A stretch of DNA of 64,000 nt from Flavobacteriales bacterium. GTDB lineage: Bacteria; Bacteroidota; Bacteroidia; NS11-12g; UBA955. Location: the NCBI GenBank assembly GCA_947463095.1, contig CANHRE010000005.1, forward strand, positions 1,120 through 65,119. The letters are read 5' to 3'. The notes below the pieces were generated by a model that did no database searches, was not told the origin of the DNA, and worked only from the letters and a program-made list of their open reading frames with translations. How positions within the stretch are numbered: position 1 is the stretch's first letter; each line of letters opens with the position of its first letter. The position numbers and the translations under genes are program-made. Of the stretch, positions 10,895 through 16,526 are shown one piece after another.

Positions 10895-12354
10895 ACATCC
10901 TGAAAAAACTCCTGCTGCCGGTCGTTTTGACCTGCCTGAGCGCGGTTGAAACCCAAGCCTTCTGCGGCTTCTATGTGGCCAAAGCCGGCGCCTCCCTGTA
11001 CAACGAAAAGAGCGAAGTAATCATGGTCCGCGACGGACAGCGCACGGTCATCACCATGAGCAACGACTTCAAAGGCGCTGCCACCGACTTTGCCATGGTG
11101 GTTCCCGTGCCCCATGTGCTGAAAGAACAGGACATCCGCGTGGTCGACCGCGGCCTGTTCGATCGCTTCGATGCTTACTCCTCTCCGCGCCTCGTGGAAT
11201 ACTTTGATCCCGCACCTTGCGGCTACCGGGAAGTGTCGGTGGTTACCAAGCGGATGATGCGCAGCGCCAATGAATCCACGGATGATGTACGCGAGCAATT
11301 GTCGGAGGTAGACTATGGTGTGCACATTGAAGCCAGCTATACCGTGGGTGAGTACGACATTCTGATTCTTTCTGCGGAAGAAAGCAACGGGCTCAAGACC
11401 TGGCTCATCAAAAACGGCTATAAGATTCCGGAGTCGGCCAACGAGGTGCTGCAACCCTATATCAACAGCGGCATGAAGTTCTTTGTGGTGAAGGTGAACC
11501 TGGAAGCGGCTGCGCAAACTGGTTACCAATACCTCAGGCCCATACAGATCAGCATGAATACCGATAAGTTCATGCTGCCCATCCGACTGGGCATGGCCAA
11601 CAGCAAGGGCGAGCAGGACCTAATCATCTACGCCATCACCCGCGGCGGCGCCGTGGAAACCACCAATTACCGCAACCTGCGCATGGTTACCGGAAGAACC
11701 GTGCCCACCTTCGTGAAGACCCATTTCGACCGCTTCTATACCGACCTGTTTGCCCGGCAGCATGGCAATGAAGGGCGCAATGCCGTGTTCACCGAATACG
11801 CCTGGGACGTCACCCCGAACTGGGGCATCAAGTGCGATCCCTGTGTTGGCAATCCCCCGCAGTACAACGACCTGATCAGCGCCGGGGTGGACTGGCTGGA
11901 CATGAGCAACCCGCAGGGTGGCAACGGCGCCTTCTTCACCCGCATGCACGTGCGCTACGGCAGGGCGCAGTTCCCGCAGGACCTGATGTTCAACACCACC
12001 TCCAACCGGGAATCCTATCAGGCGCGTTACATAATCAACTGGCCTGCCGGCGGCGACATGAGCTGTCCGGAAGCCCGCAAGTACCTGAGTGGTCTGCCCA
12101 ACCGCCGCCGCATGGAGCTGATGGAACTGGGCGCCCTCACCGGCTGGGACATCAGCCTGTACAAGCAATACGAACAGGATGGCATGGATCCCGGCATCCG
12201 TGAAGGCGAACAAAAAGGCATGTTGCCCATCCGCTACAACAAGCGCAATGATCCACCGGCCGGCGGTCAGGGCCCGGTATGGTTCCTGTTGGCCGGAATC
12301 CTGGCCACGGGCCTGCTGCTGGCCTTGCCCGTGCTGAAAAGAGCGCATCCTTAA
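10891..12354 (+). CDS. DUF2330-domain exported protein with C-terminal membrane anchor
   Basis: Signal peptide then FCGFYVAKA, FAMVVPVP, APRL-like SPRLVEY, L.TWL..NGY.IP, FTRMH; C-terminal TM helix plus basic tail; ATGA-coupled to the upstream gene. Confidence 0.8.
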   Translation: MNILKKLLLPVVLTCLSAVETQAFCGFYVAKAGASLYNEKSEVIMVRDGQRTVITMSNDFKGAATDFAMVVPVPHVLKEQDIRVVDRGLFDRFDAYSSPRLVEYFDPAPCGYREVSVVTKRMMRSANESTDDVREQLSEVDYGVHIEASYTVGEYDILILSAEESNGLKTWLIKNGYKIPESANEVLQPYINSGMKFFVVKVNLEAAAQTGYQYLRPIQISMNTDKFMLPIRLGMANSKGEQDLIIYAITRGGAVETTNYRNLRMVTGRTVPTFVKTHFDRFYTDLFARQHGNEGRNAVFTEYAWDVTPNWGIKCDPCVGNPPQYNDLISAGVDWLDMSNPQGGNGAFFTRMHVRYGRAQFPQDLMFNTTSNRESYQARYIINWPAGGDMSCPEARKYLSGLPNRRRMELMELGALTGWDISLYKQYEQDGMDPGIREGEQKGMLPIRYNKRNDPPAGGQGPVWFLLAGILATGLLLALPVLKRAHP

Positions 12355-12405
12355 TACCATAAACCACCATCACAAAGCGCTAAACGGCATAAACTTCATT
12401 CAAAT

Positions 12406-12439
12406 CAACAAAGACAGGGCGAAAGCCCTGTCTTTGTTG
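12406..12439 (+). terminator. Rho-independent terminator (possibly bidirectional)
   Basis: Perfect 15-bp stem CAACAAAGACAGGGC-GAAA-GCCCTGTCTTTGTTG after the DUF2330 gene. Confidence 0.85.
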
Positions 12440-12485
12440 TATGGCAGAGAACGTAAACCACGGTACGCATAAAACTTTTAATACC

Positions 12486-12666
12486 TGGCATCCTGAGCCC
12501 GCCTGTCATCCTGAGCCTGTCCTTTAGACTTGCAGAAGGTTACTTAGCGGATAAAACACATCACCCAGAGAGGATTATCTGAAAGACAATAATTTTTAAT
12601 ATTGTCATGAGTAAGCTAAACAGCCGAACTACGAACCACCAAGGGTATGGAAAATCTTATGGTTCG
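12486..12666. repeat. Truncated and degenerate REP-like copies
   Basis: Tandem TGGCATCCTGAGCCCG / TGTCATCCTGAGCCTGTC (12486-12521). TGTCATGAGTAAGCT...CGAACTACGAAC, whose 12625-12636 part is the exact reverse complement of 2395-2406. Confidence 0.6.
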
Positions 12667-12703
12667 ATTCCTACAAGTATGGGCAATCTGCTCTGGAACC
12701 AGA

Positions 12704-12731
12704 TCCATTTTCCATTATCAATTATCCATTC
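12704..12731. repeat. Short tandem heptamer repeat (TCCATTN x4)
   Basis: TCCATTT TCCATTA TCAATTA TCCATTC. Confidence 0.55.
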
Positions 12732-13296
12732 TTACCCATTCTCAAAAAAAACTCAAAAATATTCCCCACCTAACTACCTCATAACAAAACACTTAACCCC
12801 AAACCCGCCCCCAAACTGCGCAAAATTAGCCACGCCAAACTTGTTATTGTACATCATAACCCTATACATTTATCTTCCCTCCATGTTGCACTTATACCCT
12901 TATCCTGCAAACATCTTTTTGCCGCTTGATGCCGATTGCGATGCGGGGAATCCACAAGATTATATAAAAAACCAAGGGCCATACCGGCTTCTGGCTTATG
13001 CTGCCAACGGAAAGGATTGTTTTGCGGGTAGGGTGCTGGTTGAACAAAGGGAAAGAAAACTAGACCGTTACAACAGAATACGGGAAATAGGGGTAGGGAA
13101 ACTAGGCCTTTAAGTAAGTTATAAGCAAGGCTATGAAGACCACGCGAACAGCGGAAATCCACAGGCTGAAAAGAGACAGAAACCCACCTAAACCAACACA
13201 GGTTTGTCTGACAGACCATTTTAGAACTCTTGAAAAGTAAACTGACTTGGAGGTAAAACGAAGACTTGTTGCACAAAAAAAAATAATATCAAAAAA

Positions 13297-13782
13297 ATGA
13301 AACATATCACAAATATTAGTTTGCTAGTGGCGTTATATTTCACTGGCAGCAGCAACGTGTTAGCTGACAAAATCAAGAAACACCGAGATCAATTACGGTC
13401 AGGTTATGACAAAGTAGAATCAAAGGAAATCTATATGGTTGGTGCTAATGGGGCCATGGAACACGTTCGAACAGATGTATGGTGCACAGGTGGTGGTTCA
13501 CAGAAATTTAGAGCTTCTAGTATAGCGCATCCTTACCCCCTCAATGAACTTGACATCTTTGGGAACGAATACACTGTAGCTGAGAAAGCAATCGCAGAAA
13601 GTGTTCTAATTGATGGTGACACACAAATTGAAGGTGGTTCGACTTCAGGTACTACCACTCAAACTGTTCAATTTGTAAACACATCAACAGGTCTATCATA
13701 TTATAGAACATTCTCTTACGTATGGATAACTAATTCAAACGGAGCTGTTAATAGCTCGCTTGTCATTTCTGAACGGTTTTAA
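13297..13782 (+). CDS. Hypothetical secreted protein A (paralog of 13797-14279)
   Basis: Signal peptide MKHITNISLLVALYFTGSSNVLA; A-rich translation initiation region; aligns by eye with the next ORF. Confidence 0.75.
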   Translation: MKHITNISLLVALYFTGSSNVLADKIKKHRDQLRSGYDKVESKEIYMVGANGAMEHVRTDVWCTGGGSQKFRASSIAHPYPLNELDIFGNEYTVAEKAIAESVLIDGDTQIEGGSTSGTTTQTVQFVNTSTGLSYYRTFSYVWITNSNGAVNSSLVISERF

Positions 13783-13796
13783 TTAAATTTATATTT

Positions 13797-14279
13797 ATGA
13801 AATATAAAATAATATCAATTGCCATATTGGCTTTTATGGCTTTCGATTGCTCAGCCTATGTACTGATAATTAAAAAAATCAAAGTAGGCGGTGATGGTAG
13901 TGGTAATTACGATTACGTGAACAGAACTGTAACTGATAACACTATTGATATCGAAGGAATACCAAGACTTCAATCACGAACGATTTCAATATTTTGTGCT
14001 GGAATTGGTGGAAACGCTTGTCCAAATAATATAGCTTATATTGGAGGCGGAAATGAAGAACAACCCGTAATCTCGGAACTCTTTACATTGGAAGCAATAA
14101 ATGCCGCACAGATGCTGCTCAACAATGCTGAGGTCCAAAGTTCCTCTGGGCAAGTAAGTGGCAACAACCGTGGTACTATTGTTACTCCAGACGGCAGGCA
14201 GTACCTTTATTATATATCTTGTAATACAGATGTTTCGGGTATTAAACATATTAATATGATATTTCAGGATGCTTCATAA
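13797..14279 (+). CDS. Hypothetical secreted protein B
   Basis: Signal peptide MKYKIISIAILAFMAFDCSA; CAGIGGNAC loop; 14-nt gap from ORF A. Confidence 0.75.
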   Translation: MKYKIISIAILAFMAFDCSAYVLIIKKIKVGGDGSGNYDYVNRTVTDNTIDIEGIPRLQSRTISIFCAGIGGNACPNNIAYIGGGNEEQPVISELFTLEAINAAQMLLNNAEVQSSSGQVSGNNRGTIVTPDGRQYLYYISCNTDVSGIKHINMIFQDAS

Positions 14280-15483
14280 CATCAACATCTATTTAAGTTT
14301 CACTAATGTCAGAAGGAAGATTATAACAATCTTTTTTCTGATTTACCATTGTAGTGTTGTTTACTCGCAAAATTCATCCTTTCATCTCGATTCCGTGCTG
14401 TATTTTGACGAAATCCCAGTAACGTACAGCGAGGTTTCAAGGATTGTTTCATCAAAATCATACGGAGACATATTTTACATAGCTTTTATCCGTGATAACA
14501 ATTTTCACCTATATACGTATAATCATTCGAAAAAGCTTCTTAAAAAAGATAATTTCAAATTAAACAGCAAACTGGCCATTGGTATGAAACCTTATGATTT
14601 TGTTGTTACTGATAATGATGTATATGTACTTTTGGATAAAAAGATACATTGTCTATCAAAGGCCAAGATGAAGGAAGTATATTCGTTTTACTGCGGAAGA
14701 GCAGAGTATTTGTTTTTGTCGCAGGAGCATATCATTGCTGGATTTTATTATAATTATCATCCGGATGACAGCCCTTATAAGGCAGGTCTCAGAAAGTTTA
14801 ATTTACAGGGTATTCAAGAAGACAGTGTCTTTTTGGACCTTCCATTTCCGGAATACACGCACTATCTTCCTAGAAACCTAATATCGTATAATGGTAAAAA
14901 ATTTGTGTTTCCGTCCTTTTGGGGGTTAAACTTCCTCTTTGTGGACAAGGACTTTAGACACATTGACACCCTCTTTTTGGCTGTTGACAAATATGACAGT
15001 ACCTGGGTTTTCCCTTCTCAGGCTCTTAGTAAATCCATAGCTGAAAATATGGACAATCTCTCTTTATATTGGGGTCTACTTGATAATGCTAATTCATCTA
15101 AAGTTTCAAGAATTGAATTTGTAGAATTCACTGATTCTAATAATCTTTTGGTGCGTTGGTTCAGCCCCAACCCAAAGAGAGGGTATTCAGACAGATTTTC
15201 AATGAATCTAAAGAATATTGCAGGCTCCTGGAAACCTCAGGAAGCCGTTTCATATTTAGAGACACCCATACCATTTAATACAAGTCTAAATATCTATGCA
15301 GGTGGTATGCCTTTGCTTTCACACAACTTTTTGACGAGTTATTCCCCAAAACATATTTATCAAATAAAGATTGATATTCCATATGTTGAAAGTTTAACGT
15401 ATAAAGAATATTATCAACGAAGGATGGAAAAGGAAAAGGTATTAGATCCAATTATATCCCTATGGGTGTTCAAATATGACTAA
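14269..15483 (+). CDS. Hypothetical exported protein, putative beta-propeller
   Basis: N-terminal signal-like segment; repeated short beta-strand patterns (YDFVVTDNDVYVLLD, LRKFNLQG, FLFVDKDF); overlaps neighbours on both sides. The fold is inferred. Confidence 0.65.
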   Translation: MLHNINIYLSFTNVRRKIITIFFLIYHCSVVYSQNSSFHLDSVLYFDEIPVTYSEVSRIVSSKSYGDIFYIAFIRDNNFHLYTYNHSKKLLKKDNFKLNSKLAIGMKPYDFVVTDNDVYVLLDKKIHCLSKAKMKEVYSFYCGRAEYLFLSQEHIIAGFYYNYHPDDSPYKAGLRKFNLQGIQEDSVFLDLPFPEYTHYLPRNLISYNGKKFVFPSFWGLNFLFVDKDFRHIDTLFLAVDKYDSTWVFPSQALSKSIAENMDNLSLYWGLLDNANSSKVSRIEFVEFTDSNNLLVRWFSPNPKRGYSDRFSMNLKNIAGSWKPQEAVSYLETPIPFNTSLNIYAGGMPLLSHNFLTSYSPKHIYQIKIDIPYVESLTYKEYYQRRMEKEKVLDPIISLWVFKYD

Positions 15484-15997
15484 ACGTTCCTTTATAATAT
15501 GCCTACTCACATTCACTGGGTGTACGAATCTAAAACTGGCAACCCCTCCCATTGGTAGCCCTCAGTTACAGGTTTGCAATTTAGATAATGATACGACTGA
15601 AGTAACGCTTGTTGGGAAAGTTTCAGTTCTAGTGTTTATTAAAGAACCCAGTTGTACAGGCTGCAAGGAATATTTAGCGAAATACCTGAATACGCTCAAT
15701 AAGAAATACCATCAATATATTATTATCGGCAAGTCACAAAGTATCTTGGACAAGAAAAGCTACCGTAGCTATCTTGATTTGAGATTTAAAAACTCTTTAG
15801 GAATATACTATTCTATGAGTGAAAGCTCTATAACTATTCGCTTAAACCACAAGGATTACATTTTCGACACAAGAATAAACCCATTTGTAATGGTTATTTC
15901 AGAAAAGGGCAGCTCTGTTGATATTTACAACTACCAAGAAGTTTTCGAAAATGTGTTTGTAAAAGAATCGTTTAAGAAATCTATGAACGGATATTAG
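15476..15997 (+). CDS. Thioredoxin-fold-like lipoprotein with CxxC
   Basis: Lipobox-like FTGC at residues 13-16; VLVFIKEPSCTGCKE motif; later NPFVMVI cis-Pro-like strand. Confidence 0.65.
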   Translation: MTKRSFIICLLTFTGCTNLKLATPPIGSPQLQVCNLDNDTTEVTLVGKVSVLVFIKEPSCTGCKEYLAKYLNTLNKKYHQYIIIGKSQSILDKKSYRSYLDLRFKNSLGIYYSMSESSITIRLNHKDYIFDTRINPFVMVISEKGSSVDIYNYQEVFENVFVKESFKKSMNGY

Positions 15998-16109
15998 CTT
16001 AGAAATAAGGATGAGACACATAAAAAACGAACCGTCAACCTTTAGCTGAATCTGAGGACTGGCATTGCCCATACCGCTCAAACAACGCATCGCTTCCTGA
16101 ACAAACCAA

Positions 16110-16158
16110 AAAGAACCCGGGCCGTCCTGCTCTACTGTGGGGCGGCTTCGTGTTCTTT
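16110..16158 (+). terminator. Hairpin closing the islet transcript
   Basis: AAAGAAC...GGGCCGTCCTGC-loop-GTGGGGCGGCTT...GTTCTTT; the G-U pairs fit the + strand. Confidence 0.45.
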
Positions 16159-16196: not shown

Positions 16197-16526
16197 ATGA
16201 TGCCCGCACTCCGACTGCACTACCTGTACCGTGATGATGCCGACAGGTTGACGCATGGCAGCTTCGATTTCAGCAATCCGGAACAACTGGGCGTGAAGCA
16301 GGCCATGGGTATGCTGGAGCCGCTGTTGATCGGTGAGGTGTTTATCATTCCCAACAGGGTAGGGCTGCCGGCGTTGGATCCTGTTGACAGTGGGGAAGAC
16401 GACGACTACCACGAGGTGGAATCGCTGGAAGTTATTGAGCTGGAATCAGCCCAGGGGCCTATATTCCATGAATTCATCGAGAAGCTGCGCCGCTTTAAAC
16501 AGCAAAATCCTGAAGAATACTGGTAG
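16197..16526 (+). CDS. Hypothetical acidic protein (YLYRD...F.NP...DxxHE pattern)
   Basis: Host-like codon usage; TAACTTGC promoter-like box just upstream; function unknown. Confidence 0.65.
   Translation: MMPALRLHYLYRDDADRLTHGSFDFSNPEQLGVKQAMGMLEPLLIGEVFIIPNRVGLPALDPVDSGEDDDYHEVESLEVIELESAQGPIFHEFIEKLRRFKQQNPEEYW

Follow-up and report, generated by a model that had tools for sequence, protein, structure and literature searches.

Background

Proteins in which a thioredoxin-like domain is fused to a six-bladed NHL propeller are described from animals (NHLRC2) and from the thylakoid lumen of plants (SOQ1) (PMC6107167; bioRxiv 10.1101/2021.03.16.435614). They are important in both groups, and their mechanism is poorly understood. 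Here, we investigated a four-gene cassette (genes A to D, positions 13297–15997) in which a propeller and a thioredoxin-like protein are encoded by separate genes behind those for two small exported proteins. It lies in a 64,000-nucleotide (nt) stretch of DNA, hereafter the window, from a Flavobacteriales bacterium (assembly GCA_947463095.1, contig CANHRE010000005.1, positions 1,120–65,119 of the forward strand), and had been singled out from its sequence as an uncharacterized export system. We document its genes, their acquisition and co-inheritance, the export signals of the products, the paralogous relationship between A and B, the folds assigned to C and D, and the conserved cysteines and CxxC motif, and find the set to be real, rare, and without a named family.

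Two further kinds of locus from the Bacteroidota invite comparison. Bacteroidetocin (class IIf bacteriocin) loci encode their own thiol oxidoreductase, which is required for toxin activity, and they reportedly do so because Bacteroides lacks a general disulfide machinery (PMC6671954). The rAID-1 clusters of gut Bacteroidales, as outlined in bioRxiv 10.1101/471110, combine a XerD-like tyrosine recombinase, a conserved sequence following its stop codon, and co-directional low-GC genes (GC, guanine plus cytosine content). A literature search on loci with a six-bladed propeller and a thioredoxin in Bacteroidota, on NVEALA, and on DUF4221 returned nothing relevant.

A horizontally acquired four-gene cassette

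The original prediction described four co-oriented, tightly packed or overlapping genes of foreign composition, and this layout is exact. All four open reading frames (ORFs) lie on the plus strand and encode 161 (A, 13297–13782), 160 (B, 13797–14279), 404 (C, 14269–15483), and 173 (D, 15476–15997) amino acids (aa), with a spacing of 14 nt between A and B and overlaps of 11 nt between B and C and 8 nt between C and D. The GC content of the genes (A 0.395, B 0.369, C 0.345, D 0.349; third codon positions, GC3, 0.28–0.38) contrasts with that of the flanking DUF2330 gene (GC 0.58, GC3 0.77; assigned by a Pfam match at 1.8e-71) and polA (GC 0.56, GC3 0.70), and the island that holds them has a GC of 0.375 versus 0.536 for the rest of the window, which bears out the foreign composition. 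The predicted export signals recur in the homologs as an N-terminal hydrophobic segment in 11/11 sequences of A, 11/11 of B, 10/11 of C, and 9/9 of D; the single C homolog that lacks it is an N-terminally short gene call.

The limits of the island were mapped with a 6-kb query across the locus against seven genomes of the same genus. In five of these (G001, G002, G003, G005, and G007; G numbers denote genomes, with G000 that of the window, C numbers contigs, and L numbers fetched loci) the two flanks lie only 13–95 bp apart on one contig, that is, the site is empty, and in the remaining two (G004 and G006) the flanks are on separate contigs. The left flank ends at position 12329 and the right flank starts at 16083 or 16174, depending on the congener. 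Because five of the seven congeners carry the flanks at such close distance, the four-gene set is a horizontally acquired insertion of ~3.75 kb (12330–16083). Homologs of C were found in none of the seven congeners; the order yielded 11 genomes with one out of 191, counting G000, and the class 4 out of 401 sampled.

Public contigs from two sequencing runs span the passage from the island into polA; one run is a possible source of the assembly and the other stems from an independent study, in which the contig covers 15252–16785 with 14 differences. The independent study contains the same genes, with scattered substitutions only. On the left side, public contigs end in a short repeat (12503–12541) from which other paths branch, so that the left join is supported by overlap and flank synteny only. 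The runs that hold the island are labeled as freshwater or lake metagenomes. A scan of metagenome contigs with the C alignment gave no confirmed locus.

The order small protein(s)–C–D was recovered in 12 cassettes from 10 genomes (G000; two each in G036 and G030; one each in G063, G041, G019, G490, G246, G524, and G446). One or two small exported cysteine-containing proteins are thus combined with a six-bladed propeller and a thioredoxin-fold protein bearing a CxxC in a single putative operon. The flanking genes differ in every cassette: those in G036 include gcvP, a large serine recombinase, and the type I restriction R gene hsdR, with a cassette 3' of the latter two, and that in G019 is flanked by nth. 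In G246, A-like and B-like genes follow a LytTR regulator, and in G524 and G446 one small Cys-loop protein each follows an XRE-type regulator. Across eight cassettes, the four proteins vary in step, their pairwise identities correlating with one another (r 0.82–0.97; the cassettes are related, which makes these values descriptive only), and the set is kept as a unit down to ~20–30% identity. The prediction of a self-contained, horizontally moved cassette is thus upheld by the same gene order in differing contexts; lack of synteny elsewhere or membership in known unrelated families would have spoken against it, and the homologs are syntenic, and the ORFs match no known unrelated family.

All families in the cassette are small. 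C is represented by 12 clusters among 5.8 billion and A by seven, the window's own included in both cases, and B by nine clusters, none of which is the full-length B of the window (the closest to it is a gene call of 147 aa that is 98% identical). Among 1.84 billion, C has 46 representatives at E ≤ 1e-3. As side observations on the regulators, the divergent variants (L077 865–1263; L079 747–1073; L078 303–2043; L005 1414–1480) are preceded by XRE-type helix-turn-helix (HTH) genes or by a gene with a LytTR domain together with a multi-pass membrane protein, and the C ORF of G018 starts with an HTH-like stretch.

The exported proteins A and B

A and B had been called secreted paralogs, and a comparison of their profiles (hhalign) agrees, with 98.1% probability and an E value of 9.9e-14 over 150 columns. 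A direct BLASTP comparison of the two sequences yields no significant match (E 5.8), so that the paralogy is detectable at the profile level only; the B of the window also matches the A gene of another genome (tblastn, 1e-6). Both products carry Sec-type signal peptides and are ~140 aa long when mature. Cleavage of A is predicted after residue 23, directly upstream of a strongly conserved KKHRDxLRFGY motif. Both share a loop of the form strand-C-x-G-x-G-x3-C, and the resulting C-x7-C pair is found in 6/7 sequences of A and 8/8 of B. In the B of the window, it is C67-x7-C75 followed by Pro. In the A of G000, the second loop Cys is replaced by Phe71 (codon TTT), which leaves one Cys, and no variant is listed at this position in two runs with full coverage.

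An AlphaFold2 model of A of mediocre confidence (predicted local distance difference test, pLDDT, 65.8) begins with a beta-hairpin and the Cys loop, which are followed by a long helix and a sheet of three strands. Fold searches with it gave no convincing match, with a best Z of 5.5 (VIA) among pilin-like and PAS-like helix-plus-sheet matches in the noise range, a best Foldseek E value of 3.8e-3 against the PDB at a template modeling (TM) score of 0.22, and TM scores of at most 0.30 against BFVD. Because the model is weak, we claim no new fold for A. At the sequence level, A to D gave only noise in Pfam and NCBIfam (DUF6334 0.13, DUF4891 0.14, EzrA 0.12), no match in PADLOC, and a best PHROGs value of 0.011 to a family of unassigned function, and the profiles of A, B, and C found nothing below E 0.7 among PDB sequences.

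The propeller C

The putative beta-propeller of the original prediction is six-bladed according to an AlphaFold2 model of C (pLDDT 83.9, predicted TM score 0.81) and a fold search. The top structural match is 3s9j_A (DUF4221, PF13970; BVU_1028) with Z 17.2, a root-mean-square deviation of 4.2, and an alignment over 298 of 362 residues, and the next entry scores 2.3 Z lower; NHL domains (Z 14.8–14.9) and 4raa (BF0058; Z 14.5, 318 residues aligned) follow. The Atlas neighbors of C agree with a propeller, and its feature neighbors include DUF5128/TolB_like clusters at 0.88–0.91. By sequence, C matches neither PF13970 (hmmscan, E ≤ 1) nor the DUF5128/TolB_like models (PF17170, PF15869), for which G000 as a whole gave no match and a control was positive in three genomes, and the C profile finds neither the 3s9j nor the 4raa chain. 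A whole-genome search for PF13970 likewise gave no match but carries no weight, as its control was positive in no genome. A Pfam scan of 30 of the 46 C representatives, from which short fragments, P0008, and some near-full-length rows had been left out, gave no match for 29 of them, and the last (P0070) scored 20.5 bits with DUF5128 against a cut-off of 22.9.

The signal peptide of C is followed by Gln34, and a Gln after the predicted cleavage site is usual in its homologs, most of which have no lipobox and are not lipoproteins. C contains no conserved Cys. Aromatic, His, and Glu residues are invariant at many of its positions, including those in the motifs GFYYNYHP and PFPEYTHYLP.

The CxxC protein D

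The CTGC motif on which the original prediction had remarked is C60-T-G-C63, and the CxxC is invariant in 9/9 sequences of D, as is Pro136 downstream of it. Six of the nine have a Cys at the lipobox position (Cys16 in the D of the window). D resembles a thioredoxin-fold lipoprotein, its fold being taken from an Atlas model only, which aligns with TlpA/Redoxin clusters at TM 0.54–0.58 over ~125–135 residues. Weak profile matches point the same way, namely 3tdg_A (E 0.035), exactly at the CxxC, and the putative thioredoxin 2l5o (E 0.76); none of the nine sequences matches a thioredoxin-type family in Pfam or NCBIfam at E ≤ 1 (including PF08534 and PF00578). An unnamed Atlas cluster of 548 aa with 66 members is a structural neighbor of both C and D and may be a C–D fusion, which we take as a lead only; no protein of ~550 aa occurs among the 46 representatives of the C family.

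Upstream leader and integrase hot spot

The long non-coding stretch predicted upstream of A is real and measures 942 nt (12355–13296). It contains a 168-aa ORF (12607–13113) with no Pfam match. Its final part, a leader of ~255 nt directly before A (13046–13296, plus strand), is shared with a second low-GC cargo locus of the same genome on contig C27, where 83% identity over 260 nt reaches the start codon of an unrelated gene of 558 aa. The cargo behind the C27 leader is a lipoprotein-like ORF of this length and two small ORFs, all of low GC and none with a Pfam match. The first ~80 nt of the leader (13046–13130) form a core with two 29-nt direct repeats, which recurs in G000 on contigs C14, C27, C33, and C111 and also in G001 and G006 (as well as at L056 1044–1130). 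On C27, C33, and C14, the start of the core is only a few bases away from the stop codon that ends a tyrosine-integrase fragment, identified on C27 by a Phage_integrase match (2.3e-11) and on the other two by tblastn.

Integrases in G000 are mostly reduced to such fragments, and neither an integrase nor a remnant of one was found at the cassette locus itself (tblastn, 12300–13300). Full-length relatives are 344–393 aa long and have Phage_integrase and Phage_int_SAM_4 domains. In G018, such an integrase is followed by four co-directional exported ORFs with no assigned family, in G121 by co-directional PLD-like, DUF2278, and PFL-like genes, and in G006 a protein with a type IX secretion system (T9SS) tail directly follows the 80-nt core. 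These loci point to an integrase hot spot whose sites share one leader, in a lake lineage that is not in culture, with a layout like that of rAID-1 clusters or integrons for gene capture. Judged by sequence comparison, the leader belongs to this local platform and not to the cassette, because it was not found upstream of A in the fetched cassettes of other genomes.

Several smaller features of these regions were recorded. A hairpin in the leader (13201–13217; 7-bp stem, 3-nt loop) is identical in the C27 copy and could be an operator or a recombination site. A structured RNA was also considered for the leader, and with only two sequences and two compensatory pairs the case was unconvincing. 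The remaining non-coding DNA in the island (12355–13045) includes a hairpin (12406–12439) and a tandem 16-nt repeat (12484–12517; two copies, 94% alike) at which public contigs of three runs stop or branch and which probably belongs to a dispersed repeat family. No plus-strand site upstream of A fits the Bacteroidota promoter motif TTTG...TAnnTTTG, and sigma-70-like sites occur at chance level (14 seen versus 10.7 expected). The window contains neither tRNA genes nor Rfam matches. The 558-aa ORF on C27 (L036 1677–3350, minus strand) carries an HExxH-type motif, and among the integrase cargo of G121, adjoining the PLD-like and DUF2278 genes, a 1342-aa ORF (L066, contig C7, 4957–8982) combines the C-terminal domain of a Dyp-type peroxidase with a domain like pyruvate formate-lyase.

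A hairpin had been predicted downstream, and a terminator-like one of 12 pairs is present 3' of D (16119–16148, plus strand), but it is probably native and not part of the island, because its segment also occurs in G001. Between the island and polA lies a 109-aa ORF (16197–16526) of native composition (GC3 0.66) with no Pfam or NCBIfam match, in a stretch that is partly alignable in congeners.

Discussion

We tentatively favor, with somewhat less than even confidence, a mobile module of the cell envelope whose D and C would mature or hold an A/B pair with disulfide loops. The island is horizontally acquired cargo and lies behind a conserved sequence that normally follows a XerD-like integrase, the integrase having been lost here. 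The cargo would function as a single unit outside the cytoplasm. In it, A and B would be paralogous alpha/beta proteins that leave by the Sec route and are each closed by a single C-x7-C disulfide, and D a lipid-anchored TlpA-like thiol-disulfide oxidoreductase that forms or shuffles this bond, while C, as a soluble exported propeller, would work with D as a protein-binding platform for A and B. The matured pair would then be the product and would most probably serve in interactions with other microbes, either secreted or bound to the envelope.

Outside the CxxC of D, conserved cysteines occur in the cassette only as the loop pairs of A (6/7) and B (8/8), and in the simplest chain D would make or correct their disulfide while C would bind D or A/B. 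The chain has precedents in the fusion of a thioredoxin with a six-bladed propeller in NHLRC2 and SOQ1 and in the dedicated thiol oxidoreductase of bacteroidetocin loci. G000, in which, at 95.7% completeness, one DSBA-family match and neither a DsbB nor a VKOR was found, would suit such a dedicated enzyme. We infer who acts on whom, as well as the biological role. Antagonism or protection between microbes ranks first as a role on indirect hints, namely the mobility, patchy distribution, and frequent loss of the set, the LytTR and XRE regulators in some variants, and the rAID-like or recombinase contexts.

A number of observations weigh against this module. The claim of the original prediction that the CxxC lipoprotein matures looped effectors is plausible in view of the Cys pairs across the family, but the Phe71 in the A of G000 means either that A needs no disulfide or that this copy is decaying. 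The cassette has no re-oxidizing partner for D, and none was found elsewhere in the genome; D could therefore be a reductase or an isomerase instead, or be unrelated to A and B. The chemistry of C and D is read from the fold alone because neither reaches any Pfam or NCBIfam threshold, and the fold of A, in its weak model, matches nothing known. Cassettes are also often damaged, with A truncated or split in G041, in the second cassette of G030 (G030b), and in that of G036 (G036b), C split in the first cassette of G030 (G030a) and interrupted by eight stops in G008, and C present without the rest of the cassette in G018 and G132; all compared genomes are representatives or metagenome-assembled genomes, and some of these breaks may be assembly errors. 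Finally, no RNA run is among the public runs listed for the island, which thus give no evidence of transcription.

The alternative that survives best, although we consider it unlikely, is that the set is interbacterial-defense cargo, i.e., four exported periplasmic neutralizers of the immunity type directed against incoming toxins and captured by a rAID-like platform. It draws on the export signals of all four products and on a layout that fits rAID-1 as described in bioRxiv 10.1101/471110, with co-directional low-GC genes behind a post-recombinase sequence and the same leader behind integrase fragments on C27, C33, and C14. Orphan immunity arrays, however, consist of independent genes, whereas here a fixed set is inherited and diverges together, and elsewhere this set adjoins a serine recombinase or no recombinase at all. 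A dedicated CxxC enzyme would be unexpected as an immunity gene, Pfam and PADLOC gave no matches, and the genes behind these integrases are mixed (PLD-like, PFL-like, T9SS-tailed).

Two other explanations are improbable, to about the same degree. In methylamine dehydrogenase, a light chain is combined with a propeller heavy chain and a thioredoxin-like protein, MauD, and A and B could likewise be small subunits on the propeller C of a heteromeric periplasmic enzyme, with D as assembly factor. The two sets of parts are comparable, each with a propeller, a TlpA-like protein, and a small exported protein that bears Cys, and the invariant aromatic, His, and Glu residues of C would suit an enzyme; against this, neither cofactor-maturation genes nor an electron acceptor occur in or beside any cassette seen, NCBIfam has no MauD or dehydrogenase match, and flanks that differ from genome to genome provide no metabolic context. 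The second is that the set in G000 is an inert, decaying passenger, intact by chance after a recent insertion. The missing loop Cys of A, the loss of the integrase, the often broken relatives, and a read depth over the island of ~0.8 of that over the flank in two runs are all consistent with decay, but all four reading frames are intact, with stop and start codons that overlap, the closest relatives (75–79% identity) are full length too, and the genes reappear in the independent study with nothing beyond scattered substitutions.

A surface capture or adhesion device, with C as a propeller that binds ligands in the manner of the BtuG or XusB lipoproteins and A and B as accessory binders, is the least probable of all. 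In its favor, the Foldseek matches of C include the BT2095, BT1954, and XusB propeller lipoproteins; against it, these reach TM scores of only 0.33–0.40, most C homologs lack a lipobox, and no TonB-dependent transporter adjoins any cassette.

Returning to the envelope module, a bolder version of it is doubtful, namely that A and B represent a new effector family with two components, exported by Sec, stapled by disulfides, and acting between bacteria as a toxin or a signal, folded by a split bacterial machine like NHLRC2 or SOQ1 and carried as swappable cargo of a XerD platform. If true, it would extend acquisition of the rAID or integron kind from gut Bacteroidales to freshwater Bacteroidia and would give the module of Cys protein, propeller, and thioredoxin its first testable substrate pair. 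A, B, and C have no detectable sequence relative in curated libraries or the PDB and D only a weak PDB profile match, and A and B, as large, alignable candidate substrates with a single disulfide, would offer a simple system for probing a thioredoxin–propeller pair.

Comparison with known systems

Set beside the systems named at the outset, the cassette shares parts with each of them. As in NHLRC2 and SOQ1, a TlpA-like thioredoxin fold is paired with a six-bladed NHL-like propeller, here as D with C, and SOQ1 is reported to act on a protein target in a compartment of the extracytoplasmic type. Unlike those proteins, C and D are encoded by two overlapping genes with no fusion and no detectable sequence similarity to them, and they are accompanied by one or two small Cys-loop proteins. 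DUF4221 (3s9j) and BF0058 (4raa) are Bacteroides propellers from structural genomics whose PDB titles assign no function; both are exported Bacteroidota proteins of ~360–400 aa with the fold of C, but C lies outside their families by sequence.

Bacteroidetocin loci, as portrayed in PMC6671954, are likewise Bacteroidota loci with a thiol oxidoreductase beside an exported Cys-containing product. They encode 42-aa GG-leader peptides, a C39 ABC exporter, and a protein with five transmembrane segments, whereas the cassette has Sec products of ~140 aa, a propeller, and no transporter, the island consisting of the four genes only.

The likeness to rAID-1 is one of layout alone, with co-directional low-GC genes behind a conserved sequence and a leader present at several loci of G000. 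One rAID-1 criterion asks for at least two co-directional downstream genes of at most 41% GC, and the cassette has four such genes at 0.345–0.395; another asks for a conserved sequence 3' of a recombinase, and the leader follows integrase fragments on C27, C33, and C14 and in G006, while the cassette locus itself has no recombinase and G000 holds only fragments elsewhere. The lineage is also a freshwater one outside the Bacteroidales, and the cargo is a fixed four-gene operon and not an immunity array. What sets the cassette apart from all of these is its large, paralogous one-disulfide proteins, a propeller that is not a lipoprotein, and a C and D that fall outside the NHL, DUF5128, and Redoxin models.

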